A DNA stretch of 64,000 bases from a virus (lineage: Duplodnaviria > Caudoviricetes): positions 1,338 to 65,337 of the IMG/VR virus record IMGVR_UViG_3300033067_000991; one strand, given 5' to 3'. The position numbers and the translations under genes were made by a program. Shown piece by piece: positions 12,501-30,284 of the stretch; positions within the stretch are counted from its first letter, which is position 1, and each line of letters begins with the position of its first letter. The notes under the pieces were generated by a model that searched no databases, was not told the origin of the DNA, and worked only from the letters and a program-made list of their open reading frames with translations.

Positions 12501-15336
12501 CGGGCGGGGTCTTGCTCCACACTTCCTTTGCCGACTGCAAGGCACTGTCTTTGCTGTTTGCGATCAGCCAACCCCCGGTTGGGGATGTCTTGTATTGCCA
12601 ACGATCCCTCCATTGACGCAGTAGGCCAACGTCGGTGAGGTCGGACTCGTTGGGTTCGGTTGGCGCAGTTGCCGAGGATTCTTCGGGTGCTACCGTCGGC
12701 TCCTGACCCGCAACCGGCGTTCGGGAATCCGCAACCGGCGCCCCTGGTGCCTGGTCCGATTGCTGGCTATCCTTGACCTCCAGTACCGACATCCGCTCCG
12801 GCGCAACGCGCACCGTGCCGTCTTGACCGTCTAGTTGAACCTCAACCCACGGCCGACCGGACGATGTACGCAAGACGTTGTGAACCGTACCATCGGCGGT
12901 TTGTCCGTTGCCTACATCAACCTGCACGCGCGATTGGAACCAGCGGTGTTCGGGCCAGGCTTCGCCTTTATCAGCGGCCTCAACCCATGGTTGGGTCTGC
13001 GGCTTTTCCGCTAATGACTGTCCAGTGACGCCACCATCACCACCTGGCCCAGCCTGGCCCGGTGTCTCTGCAACAGTTCCAGCAGTTCCTCCGTCAAGAG
13101 ATCCTGAAACTCCCCCCGTAAGCGGTTCTCCAGCGTCTCGTGGTCCGTCAGCAGTTCCTGGTAGCGCTGCCACAGGTCCAGGTACATCTTCTCTAGGGCT
13201 TCCCTCGGGACGTGCGGCATAGTCGGCTCCGGTGGGGTCGGTAATCTCAGGCGCTACCGCTGTGGTTCCGGCGGCGTCCGGCGCACTGGCGACATCGCCC
13301 GGGGCGACGTTGGGGTCCGGCTGTTCCGGCGTGGCGGTGAGCGGTCCAGCGCTTCCGGGTACTGCGTCCGCAGTTTCGCTAAGGGGATTTTGGGCATTCG
13401 GCTGTTCCTGTTCGGGTTGTGGTGTAAGGGCGGCTTGAATCTTGTCGCGCAAGCTGCGGTGAAACCGTAGGGTATTCTCGGTTTCTTGCGTACCAGGCAC
13501 GGCAATGCCGGCCTCGCGCAGCCTTCCACGCACCGCCTCGGCGCCGCCCAGGGCGTCCACATTGGTAATGCGAAAGACGTTGTTCTGATCGTTCTCGGTC
13601 AGGACAGGGGCCGGGACGACCGCCGGAGCTTCCGCCCCGGTGGTCGCGTCGGTCAGCGGCTCAGCACTTCTTGCCGCCGCCGCCTTTTCCGGGCTTTTTG
13701 GACTTAGCCATGAGGGTTCCTCAGTGGGGGTGACAGCGCTTAACGGCGCACTGGGGGCCGGTTCTTCGGTAGTCGGCTCAGGGGCCGGAGCGGTCGGTTG
13801 GGGCGCGGCTTCGGGCGCATCGGTAGCCAAGCCCGGACGGGTGCCCAGCAGTCCAGCGGATGAGGCCAGCCCATCAGCCGGCGGCGTGGCCGGCTTGGGC
13901 GCTGCGGGTTCCGGCGCTACTGCGGCCGGCCCGGCGTCCACCACGGGAAGATTTTCCGGCATCCCGGGCTGGACGTTGGCGAGTCCTGCGGCGACTGCGG
14001 CGCCAGGGTCTGTTGCCCCAGCCGTTCCAACAGGCTGACGATCCCCACCAAGCATTCCAGCGTCACCGCCTGCTGTTGCAGGATCACGCTGTTCTGCTTG
14101 AGGAGTAACGCCAGTTCCTGGTTGCTGGCCGGGGATGAATCCGGTGAGGGGGTCGAAGCCGGGGGCTTGTGGCTGAAATGCTGCTGGATTCGGGAGAGTA
14201 GCGACATCGGGGGCTCCTGCGTAAGAAGATGGCGGAAGCTGCTGCCAGGCCGGCGGCACAAACGGTTGGCCCAGCGTCGGTTGCTCCGGCGCGACGGGCG
14301 GCAGACCAGCGGGAGTCGGCTGCGGACCAGTAACAGTCGGCGTGGGCGGTATGTCTGCGCCTGGCTGCGCGCGCGGTTGCATGGCGCCACCAGCCCCGCC
14401 GACCAGCCCGCCACCGACCGCGCCCATAGCGGCCGAAATGCCGTATTCGTTGAGCGCGTCCGGGGTCGCCAGCGGCATGCCACCGCCCCAGCGCTCCAAG
14501 GCGGTCTGCGGGATTTCCGTGGCGCCCTCCACGATGGCGGCCTGACCTGCTTGCTTGGCGATGTTGCCCAAGCGGCTGGCGCCCTGCGGCAGATATTCGG
14601 TGACGGGCAGCGCCACACCAGCGGCCTTGCCGAATAGAGGCTTCAGCACCTTGCGGGCCGCGAACAATTCGCCAGCCGTATCTAGGGCCGCCGCCGGCAG
14701 CGCCGCCGTCAGCGCCCGGCCCTTGTCATCGAGACCGGTGTCCCGCTGATTCGCCCGCGCCTCGCCATATTCCATCGTCACATTCGGTACGAAGGCGCCG
14801 CCGATACCGCCTAGCACGCCGCCCACGGCGGCACCCGCCGGGCCGGCGAGCCCACCAGCCATCGCCCCCAGTCGGGCGCCCGTGAAGGCGCCCGCCGCCG
14901 ATACTGGCAACTGCGCGGCCAGTTGCCCGGCCGCTTCGCCCAGGAAGGCGCGCGGCTTGGCCACGATATCGCCCATGGTCTGTATGGCGCTGGGATTGGC
15001 TTGCTGGATCGACTCGCCATACTGCCGTACCGGCTGCCCCAGGTCCGGCGCCCCGACATCTTCGAGCACCGTCCCCAGGGAGGCGATACCGGCTCCGGTC
15101 ATGGCCTTGGCCGACCGGCCCAGCGACTCGGCAAAGCCGGGGGCGGGGGGCGGTTGCGTGGGCTGCGGCGCAAAGCCGAAGTGGGCGCGCACGTCTTGCA
15201 CCAAGTCAGCAGCCGGGGCCGTCTGCGCAAAACCGAAATGCGCCCGCGCGTCCTGTATCAGGTCGGGGGCAATGGTCGGCGCCGTTCCGCCTAGCCGGGT
15301 AGCATTGCGTTGCAGGTCATCCGGGTTTGCTGCCAT
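3586..15336 (-). CDS. Giant (3916 aa) polyvalent virion/ejection protein: N6-adenine MTase, ddrB-like ParB, HExxH metallopeptidase, two ART-like domains, LPD38
   Basis: VLEPSAGKG and IIMNPPF; ILQNRDRS..IAGNGR; HEILH..EELLAD; AWHGS..GHGLYFS; NFWRWFGDS.VVD..GRPLVVYHG; DWRRDSY..IPRPFEMG..NRDSFTGRPIE. Confidence 0.92.
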   Translation of the reverse strand: MAANPDDLQRNATRLGGTAPTIAPDLIQDARAHFGFAQTAPAADLVQDVRAHFGFAPQPTQPPPAPGFAESLGRSAKAMTGAGIASLGTVLEDVGAPDLGQPVRQYGESIQQANPSAIQTMGDIVAKPRAFLGEAAGQLAAQLPVSAAGAFTGARLGAMAGGLAGPAGAAVGGVLGGIGGAFVPNVTMEYGEARANQRDTGLDDKGRALTAALPAAALDTAGELFAARKVLKPLFGKAAGVALPVTEYLPQGASRLGNIAKQAGQAAIVEGATEIPQTALERWGGGMPLATPDALNEYGISAAMGAVGGGLVGGAGGAMQPRAQPGADIPPTPTVTGPQPTPAGLPPVAPEQPTLGQPFVPPAWQQLPPSSYAGAPDVATLPNPAAFQPQAPGFDPLTGFIPGQQPGTGVTPQAEQRDPATAGGDAGMLGGDRQPVGTAGATDPGAAVAAGLANVQPGMPENLPVVDAGPAAVAPEPAAPKPATPPADGLASSAGLLGTRPGLATDAPEAAPQPTAPAPEPTTEEPAPSAPLSAVTPTEEPSWLSPKSPEKAAAARSAEPLTDATTGAEAPAVVPAPVLTENDQNNVFRITNVDALGGAEAVRGRLREAGIAVPGTQETENTLRFHRSLRDKIQAALTPQPEQEQPNAQNPLSETADAVPGSAGPLTATPEQPDPNVAPGDVASAPDAAGTTAVAPEITDPTGADYAARPEGSPREDVPGPVAALPGTADGPRDAGEPLTGGVSGSLDGGTAGTVAETPGQAGPGGDGGVTGQSLAEKPQTQPWVEAADKGEAWPEHRWFQSRVQVDVGNGQTADGTVHNVLRTSSGRPWVEVQLDGQDGTVRVAPERMSVLEVKDSQQSDQAPGAPVADSRTPVAGQEPTVAPEESSATAPTEPNESDLTDVGLLRQWRDRWQYKTSPTGGWLIANSKDSALQSAKEVWSKTPPEQLLTREQRFTQANEELYADMDAKYGKKSLPELEAEIRRMDAQIARLWRDDEFDGQGSRRTGAAVSNEGARQTGEAKLLLGTYLKMRQEREATQTLSAQSRAAPVNDPATHSGESPQWVEHTTAKGKTLRGVVRNDLTAQEARRIDPFMFKKDGGFFIREKFAQNAAEPAPAGVDTGATVPAPTPTPQTVGEVLQARADERPRRNAAKLRQTAGTLLTRAQAAQDADRNTNTARRASMAASALNSAAQDEALAKTMTNLADAIENGQAQRLAGINSKAAIEALDGVLRDARTRYEGVLKLPYEQSKQRRSEPYAESEFQHVGWPDTTIRSDWVPGLVGKLNAVRGGKKLIPEVNRQQLTPDLYNSLVKVLGKRETESAVGWLAVRNMQDITRLQRAGIQSTDDLQAAVREFAQLKAGKASIDPVKAAEMALAGQKVGIDYFPTPQPLAARMADVAGIEPGMKVLEPSAGKGSLADAARAKGAEVDTVEVSEALRKVLEAKGYPLVGHDFEDYQPGAQYDRIIMNPPFGKGTDRKDAAHIMRAYDLLKPGGKLVAIAGEGVFFGTDKAATQFRNWLDEHGGSAEKLPDGSFLDRTETHTTGTAARMVVLEKPAVAPDSAMSDVAPVQPSAPATILQNRDRSTPAAIQQMQSIAAQPDYIRLGPSRDFANGAPVVAGGQIQERQMGREETTVTASGRRIPTRYAVVEASALLPSNQADGSVNAAYGDAATPATRAIAGNGRVAGLQKAYVQGTAKDYRAELVKDAASHGIKPGVINMLRQPVLVRVMAESDVTPNIGDESNIAGTLTLSPVEQAQNDAARIALDGIAFDDDGVINRQAVTQFVRAMPTAEQGGLIDSNGQPTRQAYDRLNAAVFHKAYGDEELVRLHAQAVDPEARLVMSALAKVAPKMAKLEGAGALDIRSIVAEAGKMLVNGRRRGLTVQQVAQQLDLDTDPNVGEVLRLFAENPRSNKAVIEALANVADFAHNEAFKPDADMFEAVPRATRQDVLNRLRNDHGRSSQADMAQSGRGEPVPVDAPQGTADRGSTTSAATTDSDLFPAADAATRAEADRLALIEAQKEQQRKSNATQAPPADEGIFALDNRQADLADTAGEWTGGTTNRPRFGSGAVATLSQAEQELRELAHADERPGDVLLGNGQYVAFDAVMQRLREGVDSGAIRPVPAQVHMTLDVAMRDVDRLLEALDGVPTDAPQFSRSSTAPNNALTYEYAVPPNNPRAAPIDKAALRALRRDAVRLEDTGRAITFQILDDGRAVVRGPARVKVPKRFQRFADQHGLTLVVRRGASAHTTTPMPDAHRESGALYFGEILDSPVDAPDTTWRNRDGKTRFKRATDNAPQSPPLRLPLAANQAKAEALNRSLARQFKNNAWNTAYVQRDLPESLAEFAAAAKAAFDAEVIGITATNPRFDQFNGINVGGRHFVNLNANVGFVNVTGHEILHQLKRERPDLYHWFALQARGHYQNFAEYQDRLNSLLQAGETRFNKAAAEEELLADLTGDLLADPAFVQRLAEASPSKFKQLLNAVIKWLKQAADKLMQRGLGSSDYFRDIETLREHLAQALVAYAEGGTAKLSKLQGPKFHQAWHGSIHLFDRFSLSKAQSVGVSKGFGHGLYFSDVRFIADLYRGTGGKPGGGRLYQVDLAPQADEYMDYFKPLSQQSEKVRAALASLGFGDDPRATGEAVYNQLAASTGSQPNASAALHQAGVRGIRYPAEGSINKGKSNYVLFSDTDVTITAKFSRSAKGTITVDGVERPTTNSNGQPIHPTEEGMRNFWRWFGDSRVVDDQGRPLVVYHGGPTRLTDGREGIKAFSKAKLGWRTGASSAEHGFFFSDSAAVADSYNSADVLNSPLGGPAHRVDVAQAELEKWLDGVNLGEAVWDEDEQGYVLQITEYTQFGDENTYEWGVGVYFDTEQEALAAFGTDVVPTAIAKAEKELAAAEANLDRYVKEQIISGGATVYPVYLNITDPLRHDFKGGNYEDQSFTELMEEAKDDELDGVLLKNVRDDYEGKGIPSNVWVAFDPTQIKSAIGNTGAFSPDTPDIRFSRAYTPEQQAVKDKYAEGQTLHTKTLRQRVEESVDHWQTAWAQKVVDRYRSFRDVLKDPELWKQARLAAQSEGAVVAAMHFGAPAWDASGAIKTDLSATPLDKLNQTLGGEINDFLIWVAAQRADRINRKADAAADMVQILEQEIEDLPTQLPDRPTQKHRDAIQAKIAQAERDLKAAKRAARIRERFLDEDTIAASLTFDQGTMVDGRDRAQVYRQAAEDFNRLNDAFVALNVESGTISAEDAERWRSEGVYVPFYRFLQDEDGTARRRGLPDLGSLDAQTAFKQYKGSAIPLNDLLSNVLGNWHHLAHTATHNAAAVKALDLAVDMGLAERVPEAQATDRSLWVRQDGRKVYYNQIGTGTDAKLVWEALEGMHYTGWQSPAIQLMSKFSQLLRAGVTASPVYRARNLIRDSIQALATSNVSQAPGRAVLDGWKATQPRTMQELQAFADMVSSGALFGIHEAGYLREGNPASANAKALLKLGSKPDRDGAILLRSWDQLSALWDKYQAGGARLENVNRAAAFRKTFAETGSLLDAAFEANDLMPFQMRGTSHLLFNMARVVPFFNSRLQGLDKLARSAIDENTRKQFVTVTGAYIGLSLLAYMALADDDDYKELEDWRRDSYHYFKVGGQLYKIPRPFEMGVLATMAERTLEQFMRYGEVPKTLWLDRLYAALGDTLSINPIPQAMQPMLDVYANRDSFTGRPIEGMGMERLSKADRKTPDSSYVGVGMAQGLDAVFDTLTFGRQQTPLSPVQIDSLIEGYMGWLGALALAGSNLVLDGLSGAPDKPADIRAIPIVGDFVRAFSDADIPRSTAYSSLFYDHLRVVQQAQADLNHARRMGDSQKVADLLKDKRVPLNLKGAYNKAASDLSDINRRMQAIRVGPQDGAAKRAQLDRLQTRKNQLTETIERRFGRMLQ
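9288..9464 (-). CDS. Candidate overprinted small protein in the +1 frame of the giant gene
   Basis: GAGGA 6 nt before ATG; MDAAAKQIWRSPGGVSLFRSMLRKEPLTAEAQQALQQL. Confidence 0.4.
   Translation of the reverse strand: MDAAAKQIWRSPGGVSLFRSMLRKEPLTAEAQQALQQLTATSSPPQTPPPEPKPTDSR
13011..13220 (-). CDS. Candidate overprinted acidic helical protein (69 aa) in the +1 frame of the giant gene
   Basis: GGAG 6 nt before ATG; amphipathic L/E/Q-rich sequence unlike a shadow ORF. Confidence 0.55.
   Translation of the reverse strand: MPHVPREALEKMYLDLWQRYQELLTDHETLENRLRGEFQDLLTEELLELLQRHRARLGQVVMVASLDSH
13917..14207 (-). CDS. Candidate overprinted coiled-coil protein (96 aa) in the +1 frame of the giant gene
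   Basis: AGGAG 6 nt before ATG; NQELALLLKQNSVILQQQAVTLECLVGIVSLLERL heptad pattern. Confidence 0.5.
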   Translation of the reverse strand: MSLLSRIQQHFSHKPPASTPSPDSSPASNQELALLLKQNSVILQQQAVTLECLVGIVSLLERLGQQTLAPQSPQDSPTSSPGCRKIFPWWTPGRPQ

Positions 15337-15431: not shown

Positions 15432-17456
15432 TCAGTTGGTGACACCAAACCCTTGCGCCAGCAGTGCCCTTGCGTCGGCTTCAGTAGCGTCTGGGTTCTT
15501 GGTGTTGCGCAGATACTCCAGCACCTGCGCCACGGTCGGCGGCGCCTTCGGTTGCCCCTGCGCCGGCGCAGTCGGGTTCAGCACCTTGCCTTCGCCAGTC
15601 ACCGTGTTGTACAGCGGGAATCCGGTCTGCCCCTCCGGCGGCAAGTAGTTATCCCCGCCCAGCGGTTTCCACTCGCCGGACTGGCGCGTGCCCAGCAACT
15701 CCGGGTGTTGCAGCTTGTATTGCTCAATGCCGGCCTGGGCCTGCGATAGATTAGCCTGTCCCAGACGCCATTGGTTCTCGGCCGGGTTGCCCTGTTGATT
15801 GGTGAGAGACCCGAAACTGCTGGCCATGGCCCCCGGACTGCCGCCGTAGGAGCCGGCCAACTGGTTGTACATGGCCAAGGCATTCGCCGTGCGCGGCGAA
15901 TCGGATGGGCTGGTCGTGGCCAAGGAATACAGGCTCGCCAACTGCCGTTGCCGCATCTGCTCGCCCTGTAGTTGTTGCTGTAGCAACTGGTCACGCGGCG
16001 AAGCCGGCGGGCGATAGTCGGGGCGCCATTCTGGGACAGCGGAAATGCCTGACTTCATCCTGTCGAAATACTGAGCAAGACTCGCGCTTTCCGCGACCCG
16101 GTTGGCCTCTACGTTTTTGGCGATCTGGGCCTTCTGTTCGGGTGACGCGCCGTGATAATAGACATCCACATACTCATCGACCGGCGCCTGACCTTTCCCG
16201 GCATATTTGGCAATCAAGTCCATCTTGGCTTGTGAGGGCGCGCCATAGTTGCCTCGCGCATGCTCTATCGTGCGGTCCTGGTAATACTCGGGACCAAAGG
16301 CTTGCTCCTTGTTCTGCATCAAGGTCGGCGCCGCGGCTGCCATCATCGCCGGATTGTCAAAGATACGCTGGCGGCCGGCGCGATCCGTGACCGCGATAGG
16401 CTTGGCAAAATTGGCGTCGGGGTTGGTCTGGGGTTGGCCGAGGACGGGTTGTTGTGCGGGCTGTGTGGCAGCAGGGGCCGGCGGCGCATACGGTTTGCCC
16501 ATGACTCCGCGCGCCACATCGGCTATGCCCTGGCCAACAGATTGAGCAGATTTGCTGGCTTGGTTGGATAAGCCGGCTTGAGCGATTTGCGCTCCAGTGC
16601 CTAGCGCATTGAATGGCTCGCTAACCCTGGACGCAGTAGATGCCACATTGCGGCCGAAATTGTATGCGGCACTTGGTTGCGGCGTAGCAGGAGTATCCGC
16701 ATACGGCCTCCCCGTTTTAGGATCGATCATCCCGCCCCCGGCAAAATACAGCGGAGCGCCCAGGCGGCTCACCTGCGCCGTGCCGCTCATGAAGTATTGC
16801 GGCTGCTGATCGTCTGGATTGGGCGGCGTGATGGGCGCCGGGTTCGGTGTCATCCAGCCCTGCGGCGTGTCGATGACCTGCCCCGGCAACGGATTGGCGA
16901 CTTGCCAGCCGCGCCCCGTATCGATGGCTTCGCCGGCCGGGACGGGCGCGTTCGGTGTCTGCCAGCCCTGCGCGGTGTCCACCAATTGCCCCGGCAGCGG
17001 GTTCGGCGTCTGCCAGCCGCGCCCGGTATCGATGGTTTCGCCGGGGGCCGCCACTGGTCCGCGCCCCATCGCGCCAGACGGCTCCGGGCTCAGGGCGTAA
17101 CGGCCAGTCCCGCCCAGTGCGCTGCTGAACGCACCATTGGCGGACGCGACTTGCATCGCCAAGTCCAGCGCCCCGGCTTCGCGCTCCCGGTCCTGCTGGT
17201 ACACGCGCGCCACTTCCTCCTCGCCATCCGCGTAGTAGCGCGGCGTCATGTCGCCCAGGCGCATGCCTTGCTGGTTGAGACGCTGAATGTTGCCGCGCCC
17301 CAGCATTTCGGCGGCCTGCGGCGTCAACACGGCTTCACCCGGCCGCAGCCAGGCGGGCACGACATCCGGGCCCTTCGGCTGGCCGGGCACTTTCGGCAAG
17401 CCCTTGGCGGCGTACCGGACCTTGGGCTTGAGCTTGGCTTTGGCTTTGGTTTTCAT
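15432..17456 (-). CDS. Probable internal virion/ejection protein with four IDTxxGW repeats
   Basis: DVVPAWLRPGEAVL..G..NIQRLN, YYADG and FAGGG motifs typical of phage ejection/tape-measure-like proteins. Confidence 0.75.
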   Translation of the reverse strand: MKTKAKAKLKPKVRYAAKGLPKVPGQPKGPDVVPAWLRPGEAVLTPQAAEMLGRGNIQRLNQQGMRLGDMTPRYYADGEEEVARVYQQDREREAGALDLAMQVASANGAFSSALGGTGRYALSPEPSGAMGRGPVAAPGETIDTGRGWQTPNPLPGQLVDTAQGWQTPNAPVPAGEAIDTGRGWQVANPLPGQVIDTPQGWMTPNPAPITPPNPDDQQPQYFMSGTAQVSRLGAPLYFAGGGMIDPKTGRPYADTPATPQPSAAYNFGRNVASTASRVSEPFNALGTGAQIAQAGLSNQASKSAQSVGQGIADVARGVMGKPYAPPAPAATQPAQQPVLGQPQTNPDANFAKPIAVTDRAGRQRIFDNPAMMAAAAPTLMQNKEQAFGPEYYQDRTIEHARGNYGAPSQAKMDLIAKYAGKGQAPVDEYVDVYYHGASPEQKAQIAKNVEANRVAESASLAQYFDRMKSGISAVPEWRPDYRPPASPRDQLLQQQLQGEQMRQRQLASLYSLATTSPSDSPRTANALAMYNQLAGSYGGSPGAMASSFGSLTNQQGNPAENQWRLGQANLSQAQAGIEQYKLQHPELLGTRQSGEWKPLGGDNYLPPEGQTGFPLYNTVTGEGKVLNPTAPAQGQPKAPPTVAQVLEYLRNTKNPDATEADARALLAQGFGVTN

Positions 17457-17678: not shown

Positions 17679-20600
17679 CTAGATTTTGCCGGATACGATG
17701 GTGGAACCGCTGATCGACGCCGAGCGGCTGGTGCTGTTGACCGAGCTGTTCGAGGCCGAGTTGGACGCGGACGAGGAGGCCGACTGCGCAGTAGACCGGC
17801 TGGTGCTGACGCTCTTGCTGGTCGAGGCGCTGGTAGAAGTGGAAGCGCTGCGGCCGAAGGAATCCGACAGGCTGGCGCTCAGGTTGACGCTGCTCATGGC
17901 CGAAGCCGCCAGGTTGCCGGCAATCTTGCCGCTGGCTTCCGCCACACTGGCGAAACTGGTCCACTTGGCCTGCACCACCGCGAGCACGGATTTGGTCGCC
18001 TCAACCTGCGCTTGCAGGGTCTTGATGGCCGAATCAATTTTGTAGCTCTCGATCTTCACATGCCCGTCGATCACCGCCACATCGGCATCGATACTGGTCT
18101 TGAACGCCCCCACTTCGCCCGTGTAGGCATTGATGAGCGCTTGTACCCGCCGGCTTTCGGCCTCGACCATGCCAGTAAAGGCACCCACTTCGGCCTGGAA
18201 TACCTGCACCGGCAGCTTTTTCAAGTCCGCCTTGGTCGAGACGATGGAGGCTTCCGCCTGCGCTTGCGCGGCAAAGCCCTGCACGTTCGACTTGTAGACA
18301 TCCAGGGGTAGGGCGGCTTTGCGTAGGGTCAGGTCCGCTTGCTTGGCGATCCCATCGACTTGCGCCGAGTAGCCGCGCAACTCCGCCTCATAGCCGTCGA
18401 TGGTCAGCTTCTGCTTATCGACTTCGGCGCCGACCTTGGCTTTCTCCGCATCGACCCGGGTGGCATAGCCGCGCACCTGCTTTTCGTAGACCTCGAAGGG
18501 TAGCTTGATATTCTCCGTCTCGATGGCCGCCTTGGTCTTGGCGGCGTCCACCTTGGCGGCAAACGCCCGCACCTGGCTATCGAAGCCATCGAAGCGCAAC
18601 CGTTCAATCGCTACAGCGGCATCCGCCTTGATCTTCACGCCATCGACTTCGCTGGCGTATCCCTTTACCTCGCTGTCGTAAATCTCATACGGCAGTTTGA
18701 CGATAGCTAGGTCCGTATCGGCTTTGATCTTCACTCCGTCAATCTGTGCGGCGTAGCCCTTCACCTGACTGTCGTAGACCGACAATGGCAGCTTGGCGAG
18801 TTCGATTTCCACGTCGGCCTTGACCTTTGCGCCTTCCATCTGCGCCGCAAACCCACGAATCTGCGTCTCGTAGCGCGACAAGGGCAGCTTGGCCAACTCA
18901 ATCTCGGTCTGGGCCTTGGTCTTGGCGCTGTCCACTTGCGCCGCATAGCCGCGTACCTGGGCCTCAAAGGCGTCGTAAGGCAGCTTGACGATGCTGATAT
19001 CCGACTCAACCCGCTTTACGCCGGCATCGACTTGGGCCGTGAAGCCGCGAATGGTGGAGTCGTACACGTCGGCGTCCAGCTTGGCGACCGAGACTTCCGC
19101 ATCCAACTGCGCCTTGACCGCCTCGATGTTCGCGGCGTACCCGCGCACTTTGGTTTCGTACAGGCCGAAGGGCAGCTTGATCACCTGTAAGTCCGCGTCG
19201 ATCTTCGCCTTCGCCCCATCCACCGCCGAGGCATAGCCGCGAATCCGCGACTCGTACACGTCGTAAGGCAGCTTGACCATGGCCAGGTCGATGTCGGCCT
19301 TGATCTTGGCGGCATCCACCTGAATGCCGTAACCGCGCATCTGGGTTTCGTAGAGGGACAGCGGCAACTTCGCCAGGTCGATTTCCGCGCCGGTCTTGGC
19401 CTTGGCCGCGTCCACCTGCGCCGAGTAGCCGCGAATCTGACTGTCGTACAGTTCAAACGGAAGCTTCGTCACCTGGATGTCGGTTTCGACCTTCTTGATG
19501 GCCGCATCGATTTTCGCCGTGTAGGCGCGCAGTTGGCTATCGTAGGTATCGATTCCCAGCTTGGCGACCGACACTTTCGACTCCAGGACCGCCTTGGCGG
19601 CGTCGATCTCGCCCACGTAACCGCGAATCTGCGTCTCGTACAGATCGAAGGGTAGCTTGATCACCGCCAGGTCTACATCGGCTTTCACCTTCGCCGCCTC
19701 AACCGCCGAGGCATAGCCGCGGATGCGGCTGTCGTAGACCTCGAAGGGCAGTTTGACGAGCGCCAATTCCACATCGGCCCGCGCCTTGGCGCCGTCCACC
19801 TGGGCGACGTAGCCACGAATCTCGGCCTCATAGACCGACAGGGGGAGCTTGGCCAATTCAATCTCGGTGGTGGCCTTGGTCCTGGCTGCCTCGACTTGTG
19901 CGGCATACCCGCGAATCTGTGACTCGTACAAGTCAAAGGGCAGTTTGGCAATCTGGATATCGCTCTCCACCTGCTTAACTGCCGCGTCGATTTGCGCGGC
20001 ATAGGCCCGCAGTTGGCTGTCGTACACGTCGATCCCCAGCTTGGCCAGGGTCGTCTTGGCTTCCAATTGGGCTTTGGTCGCGTCGATTTCGCCCAGATAC
20101 CCGCGAATCTGGCTGTCGTACAACTCGAAGGGCAGCCTCATGGTGGCCAGTTCCACATCGGCGCGGACCTTAGTCGCCTCAACGGCGGCCGAATACCCAC
20201 GAATCTGCGTGTCGTACACCTCGAATGGCAGCTTCACCAAAGCCAACTCGATGTCCGCCTTGGCTTTGGCGGCGTCGATTTGAGCGCTGTAGCCGCGTAG
20301 CTGCGTCTCGTACAGCGTCAACGGCAGTTTCGCCAAGTCGATTTCCATGGTGGACTTGGTACGGGCCGCTTCCACTTCGGCCGAGTACCCGCGAATCTGC
20401 GATTCATACAGGTCGAAAGGCAGCTTGGCGATTTGAATGTCACTCTCTACCTGCTTGACCGCGGCATCGATCTTCGCGGTGTAGGCCCGTAACTGGCTGT
20501 CGTAGACATCAATGCCGAGTTTGGCCACGGTGGTTTGCGATTCCAACTGCGCCTTGGTGGCCTCGACGCCGGTGGCATAGCCTTTGATTTGCGTGTCGTA

Positions 20601-23600
20601 CAGCTCGAACGGCAGACGCACCAGCGACAGGTCAACATCGGCGCGCACCTTGGCGGCTTCGACCGAGGCCGAGTAGCCGCGAATCTGCGTGTCGTAAACC
20701 TCATAGGGCAGCTTTACTAGCGCCAGTTCGATATCCGCCTTCGCCTTGGCCGCGTCAATCTGGGCGCTGTAGCCGCGCAACTGGCTGTCATAGAGCGACA
20801 GCGGCAGCTTGGCCAATTCCAGTTCGGTCGTCGCCTTGGTGCGGGCGGCTTCGACCATGGCCGCATAGCCCTGAATCTCGGCTGAATAGACCTCGACCGG
20901 GAACTTCTTGATGCGCAAGTCCACATCCGCCAGTTGCGTCTTGGCTTCCACCAGCGAGCGGAAGGCGTCGATCTTGGCCTTGTAGACATCCGCATCCACC
21001 TTGTAGGCTTCCAGTTCCCACAACGATGCGTTGACCGCCTTGCTCCAGGCGTCCCACTGGTTGGCGTTGGCCTGCGCTTCGGTGCTGTAGGCTTGGATGC
21101 GCGAGCCGAAGATTTCCACCTTGGCGCGCTCGTAATCCAGCTTCATGCGGGCGCCCTCGAACGCCAACTTGTTGGTCGTATCCCACACGCTCGCCTGCGC
21201 TTGCAGGATGGCGATCTCGGCATTGATGCGCGCCACATGCAGGTTGTACACCTGCACCAGCAATTCAATGCTGGCCCGCTGCGCCTCAAACAGCCGTTGC
21301 CGCATCTGGTTGGTGAAGTTCATCAACTGGGTTTCCAGTTGCAGCGCCGTACTGAAGGCAAACTGGCGGTTCTTCTGCTCCAGGTCCGCTTGCGCGATGG
21401 CGATGTTGCGGGATTCCTCGATGTTCTGATTGACCGCCGCTTGTTCGGCCTGCAATAGGGCATTCGCCATCATCGGCGCTGGCATCGTCCAGCCGGCCGC
21501 CGACCAGGCCCGCGTGACTGCTTTTTGCAGGCGGCGCGTCTCGGCATTGGTGCGGGCGCGGGCGCGATCCCACAGCGCTTGCTCGACGGCGGGCGCGATA
21601 CCGGTCGCCTCCTCGCCAGCTATCCAGGCTTGCAGCTTGGCATTGAAGCTCCGCAGCAAGTCGGATTCGTACATGGTTTCATCCCATGTCAGCGTGGGAA
21701 TCTCCAGAGTCGGCAACGGCGTGATGGGCGGCTGATTGAAGATGGTGACTTCCGGCGCCCCGTCGAAGACTGTGACCGGCGCTTCCGGCGCCACACCCGA
21801 GAACATTTGCGGGCGCTCCGGCATGACGATCACTGGCCGGGTGGCTTCCAAGGTCGGCTGGTCCGGCAAGGTTGGCAGCGTCACCGTTTCCGTAGCTGGC
21901 GCGGTCGGTGCGGCCGGCGCGACAAAAGACGCCGTACCAAGTTCCGGCGCGGCCGGCGCATTCGGGTAAGTCACGTCCACCGCCCCCGGCTGGCCCGGCG
22001 CCGCCGGCTGTTCCGGCATGGTGACTGACAGCGTGCCCAGAATTGGCGTTGCGGGCGCGGACGGGAAGCTGCTATCGATAGCCGGGATATTCGGCGCGCT
22101 GGGTTCGGTCGGCGGGTTGTAGCCGGACACGTTCGGCAACGTCGGTGCGGTCGGGGTCTGCGGCGCGACAAAGGCGGCTGAACTCAAGGTCGGCGCGGTC
22201 GGCACCGCCGGATAGGTCACGTCCACGGCGCCGGCCTGGCCCGGCGCGGCAGGCTGCTCCGGCATGGTCACGGATAGCGTGCCCAGTGTTGGCGTCGTCG
22301 GCGCCGCCGGGAAGTTGCTGTCAATCGTCGGCAGATTGGGCGCGGTCGGCGTGGACGGCGGGTTGTACCCAGACACGTTGGGCAGAACCGGCGCGGTCGG
22401 TACGGTGGGCGCGATAAAGCTCGCCGTGCCCACGGTCGGCCGGGTCGGCGCGTCGGGATAGGTCAGCGTGACCGCGCCGGGTTGGCCCGGGTCGTTCGGC
22501 TGCGTGGGCAGCGTGACCGATACCTGGCCCAGTGACGGACTAGCCGGCGCCTGCGGGAACTGGGTATCGACCACAGGGGTAGCCGGGGCCGCCGGTTCGG
22601 TGGGCGGCACATACGGGCTCACCTGCCCCACGGACGGGCTCTGCGGCGTGGTAGGCGCGACAAACGAGGCGGTACTGAGGGTGGGGGCGGTCGGCGGCTG
22701 GAACTCCGTCACAGTCACCGTACCCGGATTGCCGGGCTCGTCGGGCGGGGTCGGGATGTCGGCCGTGTAGCTGTCCAGGGTCGGCGCGGTCGGCGGCTCC
22801 GGAAACTGGTCCAGGCGGGTAATGACCGGCTGGCCCGGCGCCGTCGGCACGGTCGGCGGCGTGAACGCCAGCACTGGCCCCGGCGCGCCCGGGCGGGTCA
22901 GATCAGTTGGCGCGAGGTAGCTGGCGGTAGACAGGGCCGGCGCATCGCCGGGATCGGTCGGATACGTGACATTGATGCTGGTCGTCAGTTCCGGGTTCGG
23001 CGGCGGGTCCGGGATATTGACCGTCACGGACGCATTCAACGGCGGCGCAACTGGCGCGGGGTTTACCGTCACGTCGATGGGATTCGGCGTGGGCGCATCG
23101 CCGGGATCGGTCGGCGCGACAAACGTCGCCACGGCCCCCGAGTAATTCTGCTGGCCGGGCGCATCGCCGGGGTTAAAGGCAATCCCGCTGGCATCTACCT
23201 TCAGGGTCGCGGTCAACGACGGGATGGGGCCAAGCTGCAAGCTCTGGCCGTAATCGCTGGGCAGCGGGTCGGGCGCGTGCAGGTCCGGGAAGGTAATCGC
23301 CGTGTTGTCCGGCGTGTAACTGGGCGCCGGATTGGGAATGTTCAGCTTGAGTTGGTCAGCGGGAATCCGCTCCGGCTTGCCGGACTTGTCGATGGTTTCG
23401 GTGATGGGCGCCGGTTCTGGAATGGTCACGGGCGCAAACGGCGGCAGCACTGGCGGCTCATACGCCTTGATGTCTGTCATGGCATCGCCCAGGCCGGCAA
23501 TGGCGTCCTTGGCTACCTGGATCAGCCCCGTCGGGCCGCTGCCATCAGTCAGCCATTGCAGTGCGGCGGGGATGTAAGTACCGGCTATTTCAGCGGCTTT

Positions 23601-23615
23601 GGATTGGTCGGCCAT
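17679..23615 (-). CDS. 1978-aa virion protein: Pro-rich N-half, conserved hinge, 32-aa helical repeats, Ser-rich tail
   Basis: Long ORF in the late operon; hinge TGIAPAVEQALWDRAR..IAIAQADLEQKNRQFA. Confidence 0.9.
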   Translation of the reverse strand: MADQSKAAEIAGTYIPAALQWLTDGSGPTGLIQVAKDAIAGLGDAMTDIKAYEPPVLPPFAPVTIPEPAPITETIDKSGKPERIPADQLKLNIPNPAPSYTPDNTAITFPDLHAPDPLPSDYGQSLQLGPIPSLTATLKVDASGIAFNPGDAPGQQNYSGAVATFVAPTDPGDAPTPNPIDVTVNPAPVAPPLNASVTVNIPDPPPNPELTTSINVTYPTDPGDAPALSTASYLAPTDLTRPGAPGPVLAFTPPTVPTAPGQPVITRLDQFPEPPTAPTLDSYTADIPTPPDEPGNPGTVTVTEFQPPTAPTLSTASFVAPTTPQSPSVGQVSPYVPPTEPAAPATPVVDTQFPQAPASPSLGQVSVTLPTQPNDPGQPGAVTLTYPDAPTRPTVGTASFIAPTVPTAPVLPNVSGYNPPSTPTAPNLPTIDSNFPAAPTTPTLGTLSVTMPEQPAAPGQAGAVDVTYPAVPTAPTLSSAAFVAPQTPTAPTLPNVSGYNPPTEPSAPNIPAIDSSFPSAPATPILGTLSVTMPEQPAAPGQPGAVDVTYPNAPAAPELGTASFVAPAAPTAPATETVTLPTLPDQPTLEATRPVIVMPERPQMFSGVAPEAPVTVFDGAPEVTIFNQPPITPLPTLEIPTLTWDETMYESDLLRSFNAKLQAWIAGEEATGIAPAVEQALWDRARARTNAETRRLQKAVTRAWSAAGWTMPAPMMANALLQAEQAAVNQNIEESRNIAIAQADLEQKNRQFAFSTALQLETQLMNFTNQMRQRLFEAQRASIELLVQVYNLHVARINAEIAILQAQASVWDTTNKLAFEGARMKLDYERAKVEIFGSRIQAYSTEAQANANQWDAWSKAVNASLWELEAYKVDADVYKAKIDAFRSLVEAKTQLADVDLRIKKFPVEVYSAEIQGYAAMVEAARTKATTELELAKLPLSLYDSQLRGYSAQIDAAKAKADIELALVKLPYEVYDTQIRGYSASVEAAKVRADVDLSLVRLPFELYDTQIKGYATGVEATKAQLESQTTVAKLGIDVYDSQLRAYTAKIDAAVKQVESDIQIAKLPFDLYESQIRGYSAEVEAARTKSTMEIDLAKLPLTLYETQLRGYSAQIDAAKAKADIELALVKLPFEVYDTQIRGYSAAVEATKVRADVELATMRLPFELYDSQIRGYLGEIDATKAQLEAKTTLAKLGIDVYDSQLRAYAAQIDAAVKQVESDIQIAKLPFDLYESQIRGYAAQVEAARTKATTEIELAKLPLSVYEAEIRGYVAQVDGAKARADVELALVKLPFEVYDSRIRGYASAVEAAKVKADVDLAVIKLPFDLYETQIRGYVGEIDAAKAVLESKVSVAKLGIDTYDSQLRAYTAKIDAAIKKVETDIQVTKLPFELYDSQIRGYSAQVDAAKAKTGAEIDLAKLPLSLYETQMRGYGIQVDAAKIKADIDLAMVKLPYDVYESRIRGYASAVDGAKAKIDADLQVIKLPFGLYETKVRGYAANIEAVKAQLDAEVSVAKLDADVYDSTIRGFTAQVDAGVKRVESDISIVKLPYDAFEAQVRGYAAQVDSAKTKAQTEIELAKLPLSRYETQIRGFAAQMEGAKVKADVEIELAKLPLSVYDSQVKGYAAQIDGVKIKADTDLAIVKLPYEIYDSEVKGYASEVDGVKIKADAAVAIERLRFDGFDSQVRAFAAKVDAAKTKAAIETENIKLPFEVYEKQVRGYATRVDAEKAKVGAEVDKQKLTIDGYEAELRGYSAQVDGIAKQADLTLRKAALPLDVYKSNVQGFAAQAQAEASIVSTKADLKKLPVQVFQAEVGAFTGMVEAESRRVQALINAYTGEVGAFKTSIDADVAVIDGHVKIESYKIDSAIKTLQAQVEATKSVLAVVQAKWTSFASVAEASGKIAGNLAASAMSSVNLSASLSDSFGRSASTSTSASTSKSVSTSRSTAQSASSSASNSASNSSVNSTSRSASISGSTIVSGKI
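18180..21000 (-). repeat. 96-bp (32-aa) tandem coding repeats with a 480-bp (5-unit) higher-order period
   Basis: KLG/KLD unit recurs at about 19075, 19555, 20035 and 20515. Confidence 0.92.
21900..22700 (-). repeat. 246-bp (82-aa) Pro-rich coding repeats, each of five ~16-aa subunits
   Basis: F(V/I)AP marker at 21916, 22162, 22408 and 22654. Confidence 0.9.
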
Positions 23616-23885: not shown

Positions 23886-25490
23886 CTATGCGTTGAACCA
23901 GGGGCGGGTCAGGTCTTCGGTTTCATGAATGATCGAGCCGGTTTCCGTGTCGATGAGCCAGTAGCCGGGATACCAGCCAGGTTCGTCAAAAGGAGTTTCG
24001 TAGAAGTCGCGCCACCCTGAAAAATATGATGGTGGAGACTTCACTAATGGCGAAGTCACAACATAGGTTGATGTAGTATTTCCAAGCTGTATTGTAATTT
24101 CAATCTCAGCAGATACATCAGCATCTTGGAAAAGATCTTCATCGCTCCGGTCAAAACCGGTCGCCATGCGTAGCTCATAGATTCCTGCCGGAGCTGATTG
24201 CTTATTATCAAATTCGGAAAAATCCGAGTCTGTCACATTGCCATCAAGAACTGAAGGACCGTAAGTTTTTCCGTATAGTTTTTCATAAACAGTATAGGCG
24301 CCAACGTCATCAGGGAATGGAGTTAATGGTGTAGGGTTAATCAATTGACCTGACAGCGATCTTTCTGTTGTAATCTGAACGCTTTCGGTATGCAAGTCAT
24401 TATATGTTGATGTGTATAAGCTGTGCTTATTTATGTCGTCGCTAGGGTGGTAGAGGTCGGCTTGAGTCTGTGGATATTCATTGTTATATGCGGCAATAAA
24501 CGTATGAACAGGAATCTGCTCTCGTCTATTGTATATGAACGGCCATGTCGTAAACGCCCCAAACTCACTAACGCTATACGTTATTGATGCACCTGAATAT
24601 CCTTGGTTATTATATATGTCTTTGCCAAGAAAGACCATTATATCTGTGGAGCCTTCGTAATTAAAATGGCCAGAGTAAGGGTATTGGTATTCTGTAGAGT
24701 TGTATCCGTATTGGGATTGAATTGTTATAATTTCATTTACTTCGGCTCGCCATTCATCCATGATTGCTGCATGAGTATAACTGTTGGCGTAAGCAATCCA
24801 TCTAATAATGCTTTTTCTTGTCGTATATTCGCCTGAGTCTATTGTGAATAAATTTCTTCCGCCCTTGGCATCCCTGCTATCATGCGGCAGTGACCGATCA
24901 TTTCCTTTCCATCCAGGCGGAAATAGAACAAGCCCTATAATTGGCGGAATATATTCTATATCATACTCATATAATGAGCTTTTGAATGGCGCTTCATTAT
25001 AATCTGGGAATAATTCTTCGTGCCAGTCCGCTCCATATAACCACCATCCACGCTGTAGTCCTTGCTCACGCTGATTGATAACCGTGTTTGTCGATTTGAG
25101 CAGTAATGATCTAGCCCCAATCCACAAATCACCCCCCTCAACCGGCACCAACTCTTCCCGGAAGTCCCGCTGATAACGGGCTGACTTGGGCGCTTCGTCC
25201 AGTTCTGGCGTGGCATCAGCAGTGACTGGCGCGATGTCCAGCGGCACGGGCGCCGGCAACGCCTCGGGCGCATAGATCGCCGCTGCCACCTGATCCCCAA
25301 ACCGCTGCAAGCACATCTGAATGCCGTCCGGCGTGGTCACGTTCCACACCCCGACTTCCCGGCCCATCGCCTCCATGCGCCGGGTCAGTTGCTGCATCAG
25401 CGCACGCGCCTGTGGCACGCACTGCATGGCGCGGGCGGTGTCCCCTTGGTAGGTAAAGCGGATCGCCGGGAATGGGTCGTAGTCGGTCAC
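23886..25490 (-). CDS. Tail-associated protein with conserved N-terminus and AT-rich, Tyr-rich C-terminal module
   Basis: GC drops sharply over about 24000-25110; ATGA overlap with the upstream gene. Confidence 0.75.
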   Translation of the reverse strand: MTDYDPFPAIRFTYQGDTARAMQCVPQARALMQQLTRRMEAMGREVGVWNVTTPDGIQMCLQRFGDQVAAAIYAPEALPAPVPLDIAPVTADATPELDEAPKSARYQRDFREELVPVEGGDLWIGARSLLLKSTNTVINQREQGLQRGWWLYGADWHEELFPDYNEAPFKSSLYEYDIEYIPPIIGLVLFPPGWKGNDRSLPHDSRDAKGGRNLFTIDSGEYTTRKSIIRWIAYANSYTHAAIMDEWRAEVNEIITIQSQYGYNSTEYQYPYSGHFNYEGSTDIMVFLGKDIYNNQGYSGASITYSVSEFGAFTTWPFIYNRREQIPVHTFIAAYNNEYPQTQADLYHPSDDINKHSLYTSTYNDLHTESVQITTERSLSGQLINPTPLTPFPDDVGAYTVYEKLYGKTYGPSVLDGNVTDSDFSEFDNKQSAPAGIYELRMATGFDRSDEDLFQDADVSAEIEITIQLGNTTSTYVVTSPLVKSPPSYFSGWRDFYETPFDEPGWYPGYWLIDTETGSIIHETEDLTRPWFNA

Positions 25491-28282
25491 TGGTGCGGGC
25501 CGGCGCCGCGCCGGGTGAGAATGTCCGGTAGCAGTTCCAGGCTATCCAACTCGAAGGCCGCGCCATTGCCCTTGATCGTCACCCGCACGTAGTTCCCGGA
25601 CTGGCCGCGGCCCATCCGCAGCTTGCGCAGCGCCAGTTGGTCGGCCGCCGTCATGGTGTAGGTGGTCGTGGTACCGTCATCGGTTTCGACGATCACTTGC
25701 ATGTCGTCGGTGTTGTCGAGCCCGAGATAGGCCGCCTCCAGCCGCTTGCGGTAGGGCGTGCCGAAGGTCTGCGGGCCGGTATCGACGAATGCGGCAATCG
25801 CCGCGCCGTGGTTGGTATCGCCTTCCAACAGGTAAATGCCGTCGTCTGCGGTCGCCAGTAGGCGGGTGCCATCGTGCGCGTAGCTGGTAAACGGCCAGGA
25901 TTCGTACTTGGTTGCCGCCCCGGTGGCCAGGTTGATCGACCAGGCGGAAAAGGCTTCGTTGGCGTCCAGTCGATAGGCGCACTCGAAGCGGCCCAGGATG
26001 GCCGTGTCGGTCCACAGCGCATAGTCGCCATGCGCCAGGCCGTACCGAGTGGCATGCACCTGCACGGCATAGCCGGCGTGCGTCTGAGCCTGCGCCGCCG
26101 CCAGGGCCGCTACCGCATAGCCGGTATCCAGAGCGCCAGTCTGTTGTGTCCAGCCGGTGACGGCATAGGCCGTATCCGTCAGGGCGGTCAGGGCTAGTTG
26201 CCCGTGCGCCAGGGTGTAGCGGGAATCGGTCGCCGCCTGCAGGAACTCGAAGCCGGCCGGCAAGCGGTACTGCACCTGCGCCAGGGCGGCCAGGTTGACA
26301 TACAGGCGAATGCCGTACTGCTGGTCGAGGGTCGCACTGTGCTGCGCAAGAGCGCTGACCGCGTAGGTGGTCGCATCCTGCGCCGCCACCGTGCCGCCCA
26401 CCGCAATGCCGTAATCGGCATGCACGGTTGCGCCAATCGCATCGCGGGTGTCCAGCCCATACTGTTGATCGAACAGGCCATAGATGGTCTGTTCCGGGGT
26501 CAGGCCGTACCCGATATCCCAGACGCCGCCCACCGCCTGATACAGCGCCATGCCGTACTGCTGATCCAGCACTGCGCCCACGGGCTCCAGCGCCGCGAGC
26601 GCGTAACGGGTGGTGTCTTGCGCGAGGAGCGTCGCGCCGATGGTCAGCGCATAATCGGCGTGCGCCTGCGCAGCGACTGTTGTTCGCGCCTCAATTCCAT
26701 ATTGCTGATCGAACAGGCCATAAATGGTCTGCTCAGGCGTCAGCGCGTAATGGGTATGCCACGTGCCGCCCAGCCCGCGATACAGGTCGATGCCGTAGCT
26801 TTCCTGTACCAGCGCCGTCGCCGGTTGCAGCGCCGCCAGGGCGTAGCGGGTCGTGTCGTCGGCTGCAATCGTCGTGCCGATGGCCAGCCCATAGGCGGCG
26901 TCCCAGGCCGAACCCAGCGCCGTGAAGCTGTCCAGGCCATAGCGGTTGTCGGTCAGCGCCTGAGCGGCCTGCTCCGGCACCAGCGCATAGCCGGCGTCCA
27001 GCGTTGCCGCCAAGTCGGTATGCAGGCTGATGCCGTACTGATTGGCCCATTCGCCCAGCAGGCTGGTGAAGACCGGCACGGCATAGGCCGTGTCCGCCGC
27101 CCCCTGGACCGCGACATTCCCGGCCAGCGCGTAATAGCTGGCATCGCTCGCCGTCAGCGCGGCATAGGCTGAGACGGCGAAGGTTTCGCTGACCGTCGCC
27201 TGTACCGCCAGGCGCGGGGTAATGCCGTAATGGGCGCTCCACTCGCCTTGCAGCGGCTGGAACACGCCCAGCCCATAGTCGGCCGTCCACTCGCTCGCCA
27301 GCGGAGCCAGCAGGGCAATCGCGTAATCGGCCTGCCAGGTTGCCGCCAGCGCCTGCGGGATGCTGATGCCGTACTGGCTGGCCCACTCGCCTTGCAAGCC
27401 GCCCGGGGGCAGGGCCACGGCGTAGGTCGTGGCGTCTTCGCCAATCAGTACCTGATAGCCATCCAGGGCATAGCCGGCCCACCAGTCAGACTGGCTGGCC
27501 TGATAGGTCGCCAGCGCGTAGTGGGTGGTGATCTCTGCTTGTACCAGCGCCGCGCCAGCGGCCATGGCAAAGTCGGCATGCGCCTGCCCGGTGACAGTCT
27601 GCCAGGCGCCGAGGGTATAGCCCGCATCCGCGCTCGCCGTCAGGGTGGTGTAGGCGTGTGCGGCATAGTGGGTATCCGCGACCGCTGCAACCAGGTTCGG
27701 CGGGCTGATCTGATACCGCGCCTCGAACTGGGCGCTGCGAGCGTCCCAGGCGTCGAGCCGGTAGGTCGTGATGACCGGGGCCGCCAGCGTTTGATAGGCC
27801 GGCAGGGCATAGCGCGTATCCAGCGCCGCCGTGCCGGCCTGATAGGCGTTGAGCGTGAAGTAGCTGTCCGCCTGCGCGCTCAGGGACGCATAGGCGTTGA
27901 GCGTGAAGAAGGTATCGGCCGCGCCGGCCAGCCCGACATAGGCGTTGAGCGCAAAGTGCGTGTCCGCCTGCGCGGCCAGCGGGGCGTAGATGTCCAGCCC
28001 ATACAGATAGGCGTCGGCGCCGGTCTGCGTCGCCGCCAGGCTCCATTGCTGGCCCAGGGTGTACGTGTCGTAGCTGTACCCGGCCAGCGCCCAGGACTGA
28101 TTGAGGGCGTAAGTGTCGTAGGCATAGACCGCCAGCGCCCAGGACTGATTCAGCGCATGGGTGTCATAGCTGTAGGTCGCCAGCGCCCAGGACTGCTGTA
28201 GCCCGTAACTGTCCTGACCGGCATAGGTAGGCGAACGCGCTGGGGTAACGCCGCCACGTTTGAGGGGGCGTTGCATGGCCAT
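25487..28282 (-). CDS. 931-aa tail protein with ~16-aa Tyr-anchored repeats and conserved C-terminal domain
   Basis: Y(G/A)(L/I) every 16 aa; 240-bp repeat at 26471/26711; C-terminal AWSINL..ATKY..FTSYA..DGIYLLEGD. Confidence 0.85.
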   Translation of the reverse strand: MAMQRPLKRGGVTPARSPTYAGQDSYGLQQSWALATYSYDTHALNQSWALAVYAYDTYALNQSWALAGYSYDTYTLGQQWSLAATQTGADAYLYGLDIYAPLAAQADTHFALNAYVGLAGAADTFFTLNAYASLSAQADSYFTLNAYQAGTAALDTRYALPAYQTLAAPVITTYRLDAWDARSAQFEARYQISPPNLVAAVADTHYAAHAYTTLTASADAGYTLGAWQTVTGQAHADFAMAAGAALVQAEITTHYALATYQASQSDWWAGYALDGYQVLIGEDATTYAVALPPGGLQGEWASQYGISIPQALAATWQADYAIALLAPLASEWTADYGLGVFQPLQGEWSAHYGITPRLAVQATVSETFAVSAYAALTASDASYYALAGNVAVQGAADTAYAVPVFTSLLGEWANQYGISLHTDLAATLDAGYALVPEQAAQALTDNRYGLDSFTALGSAWDAAYGLAIGTTIAADDTTRYALAALQPATALVQESYGIDLYRGLGGTWHTHYALTPEQTIYGLFDQQYGIEARTTVAAQAHADYALTIGATLLAQDTTRYALAALEPVGAVLDQQYGMALYQAVGGVWDIGYGLTPEQTIYGLFDQQYGLDTRDAIGATVHADYGIAVGGTVAAQDATTYAVSALAQHSATLDQQYGIRLYVNLAALAQVQYRLPAGFEFLQAATDSRYTLAHGQLALTALTDTAYAVTGWTQQTGALDTGYAVAALAAAQAQTHAGYAVQVHATRYGLAHGDYALWTDTAILGRFECAYRLDANEAFSAWSINLATGAATKYESWPFTSYAHDGTRLLATADDGIYLLEGDTNHGAAIAAFVDTGPQTFGTPYRKRLEAAYLGLDNTDDMQVIVETDDGTTTTYTMTAADQLALRKLRMGRGQSGNYVRVTIKGNGAAFELDSLELLPDILTRRGAGPHQ

Positions 28283-30281: not shown

Positions 30282-30284
30282 GGG

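Follow-up and report, generated by a model that had tools for sequence, protein, structure and literature searches.

Length-matched proline-rich and helical arrays in a 1978-residue protein, a probable tail tube subunit of an F116/A1002-type podophage

Introduction

What would lead a single viral protein to carry two repeat arrays, one proline-rich and one helical, whose units and total lengths both stand at about 1:2? The question is raised by an intact minus-strand open reading frame (17679-23615) encoding a 1978-amino-acid (aa) protein in the DNA of a tailed virus (Duplodnaviria; Caudoviricetes), IMG/VR record IMGVR_UViG_3300033067_000991. The stretch analyzed here, referred to as the window, is 64,000 nucleotides long (positions 1,338 to 65,337 of the record, G+C 61%) and covers nearly all of the genome, a single contig of 65,337 base pairs (bp) that carries terminase, portal and capsid protein. 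We conclude that the 1978-aa protein probably forms the tail tube of a podophage with a 65-kb genome and F116/A1002 architecture, each chain being one stave of a two-layered tube.

The original prediction for this locus, made from the sequence, was of a virion protein whose chain folds back into a hairpin stalk in which a polyproline II (PPII) strand lies against an alpha helix of equal length. PPII rises by about 3.1 Å per residue and an alpha helix by about 1.5 Å. A stalk of this kind is known from streptococcal antigen I/II, a single-chain bacterial surface adhesin in which A-repeats are intertwined with P-repeats over a long distance.

Results

Two repeat arrays flank a conserved domain

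All parts of the gene described here lie on the minus strand. The protein begins with a low-proline, alanine-rich segment (aa 1-50, 23466..23615), the counterpart of a helix at residues 14-55 in the AlphaFold2 (AF2) model of P0051, a typical family member. The proline-rich region that follows (aa 51-640, 21696..23465) contains 16-28% proline in every 50-aa block. It matches itself best at a lag of 82 aa, where identity between aa 230 and 600 is 49%, and harmonics appear at 164 and 246. Tandem Repeats Finder gives a period of 246 bp for 21898-22490 (score 633), so that the 82-aa, 246-bp period originally proposed was recovered by both methods. Secondary lags at 33, 49, 115 and 131 aa are consistent with a sub-period of about 16.4 aa. 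Clear periodicity is limited to a core of about four copies of the 82-aa unit (aa 260-600, 21816..22838), each made of the ~16.4-aa sub-units; local identity peaks at 0.78 at aa 441-563 and is at most 0.2 N-terminal of aa 240. The original prediction had described a periodic region of about 590 aa, and its extent stands, whereas the periodicity is clear in just aa 260-600.

Next comes a conserved, non-repetitive domain (aa 641-868, 21012..21695), earlier described as a hinge, and then a helical array (aa 869-1860, 18036..21011) of 31 units of 32 aa that keep a single register with zero indels. Identity within this array is 57% at a lag of 160 aa versus 42% at a lag of 32 aa, which means that five distinct 32-aa units make up one 160-aa (480-bp) super-unit, as first proposed. 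The hydrophobic signal of the array is strongest at periods of 3.56 (32/9) and 2.29 residues, a pattern like that of coiled coils. The helical part ends in a C-terminal helical cap (aa 1861-1915, 17871..18035) that bears ..GKIAGNLAASA.., the motif of the family, and this part measures 1275 aa from the conserved domain to the motif, close to the roughly 1190 aa first estimated. The last segment is a serine-rich tail (aa 1916-1978, 42% serine; 17679..17870 with the stop codon). Such a tail ends every family member, often with YNYNY-like last residues, and its length ranges from 5 to 170 aa, the 170-aa tail of P0007 being rich in Ser, Thr and Asn.

In the window protein the ratio of the two periods is 160/82, or 1.95. 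Both arrays are most self-similar beside the conserved domain and decay toward their far ends in mirror-image gradients; they are youngest beside that domain and most decayed at the ends farthest from it. Since the repeat copies are at most 78% identical at the DNA level, the arrays are no assembly artefact. Two Pfam matches, Peptidase_M66 and IRX15, were discarded as noise from repeats or coiled coils, as neither has a stretch that passes by itself and the matches extend over no catalytic region.

The protein is an extreme member of the gp58 family of F116-like phages

Membership of the F116-like gp58 family is indicated by a match of the whole gene product to phrog_10969 (E 1.5e-119) and by tblastn matches to gp58 of phages H66, LKA5, phiC725A and others. 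These gp58 proteins have all parts in common with the window protein and are annotated as hypothetical, 'LigA' or structural protein; in other records, too, the homologue is labelled structural. With the non-repetitive region as query, a full HMMER search matched 1764 cluster representatives at E<=1e-3. The order of parts (N-terminal helix, proline-rich part, conserved domain, helical part, C-terminal motif, serine-rich tail) is kept across the family.

Typical members are 620-660 aa long, with about 185 aa before the conserved domain (the N-part) and a helical part of about 423 aa, and the window protein (640 and 1275 aa) is the longest among the proteins examined. Its closest relatives, 44-52% identical in the HMMER search and 57-62% by BLASTP over the conserved non-repetitive region, are just 675-835 aa long with about four 32-aa units. 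Compared with the nearest relatives, the N-part has gained about 436 aa (5.3 x 82) and the helical part about 800 aa (5.0 x 160). A word-index search in the length range 1087-3462 aa gave P0004 as its sole find, and a pattern scan of viral contigs found no close relatives.

One relative, from Shewanella phage vB_SbaS_Y11 (OQ927986.1), is a 901-aa homologue annotated 'Rho guanine nucleotide exchange factor 11'. In its published description Y11 is a siphovirus, with a tail of 72 nm, for which a new family was proposed; its tail genes form a module of F116/A1002 podophage type.

The lengths of the two arrays are tied together across homologues

The N-part (up to the start of the conserved domain) and the helical part (from the conserved domain to the C-terminal motif) were located in the 194 proteins gathered, in 184 of which an iterated jackhmmer profile finds the C-terminal motif at full length. 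The length analysis drew on the best 150 of the 1764 representatives. A heuristic for the start of the proline-rich region proved over-strict, passing 148 sequences, and was replaced by the start of the conserved domain.

The paired lengths are quantised. The shorter pairs of N-part and helical part are (98,255), (130,297), (137,332), (156,358) and the modal (185,423), and the longer ones are (243,525), (286,590), (372,775), (418,836) and, for the window protein, (640,1275). The two lengths correlate with r = 0.97 in the 148 sequences that passed the proline-start filter. With phylogenetically independent contrasts, computed on a conserved-domain tree for 174 sequences after N-truncated sequences and mislocated motifs had been taken out, r is 0.98 and the slope 1.81; that tree rests on about 200 residues, and some of the events in the analysis may be shared and not independent. 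Among 78 sizeable sister contrasts, the signs agree in 61, and where the helix changes by at least 60 aa the ratios are nearly all 1.6-2.1, for contractions as well as expansions.

The same ratio appears in the repeat units themselves. Four separately expanded arrays with differing unit sizes have N-part and helix periods of 82/160 (window), 55/103 (P0053), 26/50 (P0129) and 23/42 (Y11), that is, ratios of 1.95, 1.87, 1.92 and 1.83. Antiparallel side-by-side packing further predicts that insertions and deletions in the two parts should occur at matched positions. In 16 related pairs whose differences are non-repeat indels, the position of the helix gap follows that of the N-part gap as 141 + 1.78 x N-part gap, both measured from the conserved domain (r 0.94); tandem-repeat expansions (P0053/P0065 and Y11/H66) were left out of this test because gap placement within repeats is arbitrary.

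Co-variation of the two lengths among homologues had been set beforehand as the test of the fold-back idea, and the contrasts bear it out at a slope of about 1.8. Together with the period ratios of 1.83-1.95 and the matched paired indels, this upholds two claims of the original prediction: that the proline-rich part folds back along the helical part and matches it stretch by stretch, and that both arrays grew together.

Family profiles show homology of the conserved domain to A1002 gp37, a tail tube protein

The single-sequence search of the PDB with the conserved domain of the window protein returned chance NusA matches only, and gp37 was not reached without a profile. Two family profiles, one of 120 typical members and one with the window protein as its first row, both matched PDB chain 26la_X/44nx, with E values of 6.4e-15 and 1.5e-15, respectively. 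The length of the matched 318-residue chain matches that of gp37 of the Pseudomonas podophage A1002 (Kochitakasuvirus), the tail tube protein modelled in entry 44NX (PMC13730344, PLoS Biol, Nov 2026). The significant profile alignment covers gp37 residues 91-209, and by this alignment the core of the conserved domain at aa 641-868 corresponds to the nozzle-dock domain of gp37. A Foldseek search of the P0051 model against the PDB gave no match at E<=0.001, in a library that runs to April 2026 and so predates the A1002 entries, and for a model type, long single helices, that aligns poorly.

Twelve chains of A1002 gp37 form a 24-nm double-layered tube, in which the outer wall comes from residues 4-105 and the docking on the nozzle from residues 106-186, and extended helices (residues 187-305) line a left-handed 12-fold inner channel (PMC13730344). 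The window protein resembles gp37 in its homologous conserved domain and in the order of parts, an N-terminal outer part, a docking domain and C-terminal long helices; the fold-back layout, with the N-terminal part outside and the helices inside, would also be common to both. It differs in being six times longer and in the nature of its outer part, a proline-rich extended repeat array where gp37 has three helices with loops, and its helical part is a 31-unit repeat with a predicted tube of about 170-200 nm, versus 24 nm for gp37. Given this homology, the hairpin would be one stave of a hollow tube, and the lone single-chain stalk first envisaged is probably not correct. The novelty originally claimed for the architecture among phages does not hold either, as the fold-back two-layer tube, with inner helices and an outer N-terminal domain, is now known from A1002 (PMC13730344).

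Structure prediction is consistent with this layout. The AF2 model of P0051 (639 aa, from a 120-row alignment) has helix 14-55 followed by coil at residues 56-202, for which the predicted local distance difference test score (pLDDT) is mostly 75-89, unusual for free coil, and then a helical hairpin and a single continuous helix at residues 263-609.

A model for the tube and its length

In the proposed tube, the conserved domain (aa 641-868) would, by homology with gp37, attach twelve chains to the nozzle. Each chain would send a long amphipathic helix, extending to aa 1915 and with 9 helical turns per 32-aa repeat, away from the head, and these helices would jointly line the DNA channel. The N-terminal part would form the outer layer, with the proline-rich strand (aa 51-640) running antiparallel to the helix, back up the outside to the nozzle, so that both chain ends would lie at the distal tip. 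There the N-terminal helix (aa 1-50) would clamp onto the far end of the long helix. Under this geometry the twelve serine-rich tails would also be at the distal tip. The dodecameric state, the inside and outside assignments in the gp58 family and the PPII-like conformation are expected rather than observed features of the model, as is the tail length.

One extended residue would span about 1.8-1.9 helical residues, a facing ratio that would explain both the 82- and 160-aa units (about 24 nm each) and the total lengths of about 1:2. With about 1.5 Å per helical residue, a slope of 1.8-1.9 gives about 2.7-2.8 Å per residue of the outer strand, which would thus be extended and PPII-like at a rise somewhat below ideal PPII. 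The family constants place aa 50 opposite roughly aa 1874, from which the 45-residue N-terminal helix would reach about aa 1915, the end of the helical part, and the geometry would close.

The tube length would then change solely by paired indels at facing positions, and the tube subunit would be its own ruler, so that no tape measure protein would be needed. In siphophages and myophages, tape measure proteins set tail length at about 1.5 Å per residue. The window protein is like them in that the length of a long helical protein would set that of the tail and repeat indels would alter it, and unlike them in that the ruler would be the tube wall itself and not a separate protein inside stacked tube rings; PHROG and Pfam scans of the window protein gave no tape measure match.

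Published tail lengths rank with helical-part lengths. The A1002 tail is 40 nm long (PMC13730344) with a helical part of about 200 aa, the 'short thin tail' of the F116-like phage phiC725A is 66 nm with 422 aa, and the 'long noncontractile tail' of Y11 is 72 nm with 590 aa. Given about five extra units per array relative to the nearest relatives, the window phage is predicted to have a thin tail that, extrapolated at 1.2-1.5 Å per residue, would be about 170-200 nm long.

The tail module surrounding the tube gene

The neighbouring genes are likewise on the minus strand. A 931-aa protein (25487..28282; phrog_26502) matches PDB 26gp_Q over aa 774-925 (E 2e-15) and is, on this match, a predicted homologue of gp39, which is A1002's nozzle-rope protein. 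A 422-aa protein (31345..32613; phrog_8040, PHROGs 'head closure Hc3') matches PDB 26fb_K near full length (E 2.9e-36); the 398-aa chain of 26FB, the A1002 portal-adaptor-nozzle entry, is probably nozzle-base gp42, judging from the chain lengths in the A1002 paper (PMC13730344). A 232-aa SU10-type adaptor (38162..38860) matches PF24175 (E 4.7e-25). Nozzle-base, nozzle-rope and SU10-type adaptor genes thus lie near the tube gene, as in A1002.

Between rope and tube lies a 534-aa gene (23886..25490) that relatives have in syntenic position and whose product matches nothing in Pfam, PHROG or the PDB, and between it and the tube gene an 83-aa open reading frame (23625-23876) without a family match; the P0053 contigs have a gene of 82 aa immediately following that for the tube. 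On the downstream side of the window's tube gene are a 674-aa protein (15432..17456), syntenic with H66 gp59, and a giant protein of 3916 aa (3586..15336) at the end of the module, the counterpart of the H66 virion protein gp60 with its PLxRFG and methyltransferase domains. The giant protein has methyltransferase-type PHROG matches, and its versions in relatives, about 2800 to 4700 aa long, stand straight after the same module. Three small genes at 28741-31274, encoding 329, 260 and 252 aa, occupy the place of A1002's two fibre-dimer genes; two of them match phrog_13135 and one matches Laminin_G_3, and the 260-aa protein has no PDB sequence match.

The conserved neighbourhood therefore reads nozzle base, rope, one gene, tube gene, one gene, giant protein. 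This order matches those of Hollowayvirus H66 (F116-like; Hc3, gp55, gp56 of 865 aa, gp57 of 387 aa, gp58 of 630 aa, gp59 and the giant gp60), of Shewanella phage Y11 and of metagenomic relatives, which have the gene order seen in A1002: nozzle base, fibres, rope, one gene and tube, from gp42 down to gp37 (PMC13730344). Neighbouring tail proteins do not scale with tube length. Across helical parts of 422 to 1275 aa in relatives and window, the rope is 865, 863 and 931 aa long and the protein upstream of the tube 387, 461, 449, 598 and 534 aa.

The first ~750 aa of the 931-aa rope homologue have a tyrosine-anchored 16-aa period with an 80-aa (5 x 16) super-period, which, if the chain is extended, would measure about 24 nm, about the physical period of the 82- and 160-aa units of the tube protein. 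Rope-type 16/80-aa periodicity was not seen in H66 gp56.

Discussion

Several observations weigh against reading the window protein as a two-layered tail tube subunit. The significant homology to gp37 spans about 100-120 residues, that is, one domain, and the N- and C-terminal matches, although collinear, are insignificant. The outer wall of gp37 consists of helices and loops and has no proline-rich strand (PMC13730344). Every 32-aa unit of the helical array contains a proline and a glycine (KLP, RGY), which could kink the helix. In the P0051 model the packing of the N-terminal against the C-terminal part is read from pLDDT alone, and the AF2 model of a fragment of the window protein (aa 395-1190, 40-row alignment) is poor, with a mean pLDDT of 52; it is confident just in the conserved domain (pLDDT 66-84) and uninformative on the packing of proline-rich strand and helix. 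Published negative-stain tail lengths climb less steeply than 1.5 Å per residue. Finally, the virion proteins verified by mass spectrometry (MS) in the H66 record are gp48, gp52, gp54 and gp60, and gp58 is not among them.

The protein could instead be a single-chain, dimeric or trimeric hairpin of PPII strand and helix, a fibre, stalk or whisker like antigen I/II in place of a hollow tube. The co-variation data would suit any side-by-side packing, the hydrophobic periods of 3.56 and 2.29 also fit ordinary coiled coils, and published descriptions of F116-like phages speak of podoviruses whose long fibres are tightly packed. We nevertheless consider a fibre unlikely: the conserved domain has its homologue in the nozzle-dock domain of a tube protein solved as a dodecamer, the gene stands in the A1002 order relative to the nozzle-base and nozzle-rope homologues, and the module would be left without another candidate tube gene. 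As for antigen I/II itself, the resemblance holds as an analogy (an alpha helix and a proline-rich extended strand of equal physical length in a folded-back chain, with a residue ratio of about 2:1) and fails as a relationship, since the Pfam scan of the window protein gave no match to the antigen I/II repeat or domain families; unlike the proposed tube, that protein is a single-chain adhesin stalk.

An internal role is also conceivable, in which the protein is stored in the head or tail lumen and ejected to bridge the cell envelope, or acts as tape measure for another tube protein, and in its stored or extended form would require the matched arrays. Right after the gene come those of the 674-aa protein, which has a weak tape-measure PHROG match (E 4e-4), and the 3916-aa giant, whose H66 counterpart gp60 was found in virions by MS and is likened in the phiC725A paper to injected proteins such as N4 gp50; the absence of gp58 from the H66 list would fit this role as well. 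It seems to us quite unlikely, however, as the solved homologue lies on the outside of the mature virion as its tail tube, no second tube-like gene came to light, a rod some 190 nm in length is too long for a 70-nm head unless unfolded, and the tail length of relatives tracks the length of the tube-protein homologue. That the two arrays are structurally independent, each prone to slippage, with the 1:2 ratio a coincidence, is very improbable and already strongly disfavoured. Both regions are of low complexity, repetitive and able to expand separately, and some relatives show 20-70 aa of slack in the N-part without a change in the helix; yet the independent contrasts correlate at r 0.98, four arrays of differing unit size hold to a common ratio of 1.83-1.95, and indels are paired at matched positions, in contractions and expansions alike.

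The two-layered tube thus remains the reading that we favour as probable. More ambitiously, it is quite possible, if short of probable, that a phage of podovirus lineage has acquired a tail of siphovirus length (about 0.17-0.2 micrometre) built from a single ring of twelve chains that span the whole tail, with the length written in the two matched arrays of one gene, that such changes have evolved repeatedly across the family by paired indels at facing positions, and that the 16/80-aa array of the rope may register fibres along the tube.

Podophage tails lengthened by a 12-fold alpha-helical tube are also found in the N4-like phages (N4, DEV, Moo19 and B2), whose dodecameric tubes are described as single-layered (PMC13730344). 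Our profile search at E<=1 returned no PDB chain named for an N4-like tube protein. The A1002 paper makes no mention of length variation or of the F116-like family (PMC13730344), and in it and in our literature search we did not find the link to that family, the proline-rich outer layer, the extreme expansion or the family-wide length law. Nor did the literature searched contain a prior assignment of function for the gp58 family.

If the two-layered tube is correct, it would give a function to 1764 cluster representatives of proteins called hypothetical, among them gp58 of the transducing F116-like phages that infect Pseudomonas aeruginosa, and would explain the long-tailed look of some phages with genomes of podovirus type, such as Shewanella phage Y11, described as siphoviral. 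A third means of fixing tail length would come to light, with the tube subunit as its own ruler, and such subunits are a possible scaffold from which to build protein nanotubes whose length can be programmed. With the length law, nature offers one of the rare cases in which the ratio of the rise per residue of two secondary structures can be read from sequence evolution, and the family is a ready-made experiment on the co-evolution of distant repeat arrays.

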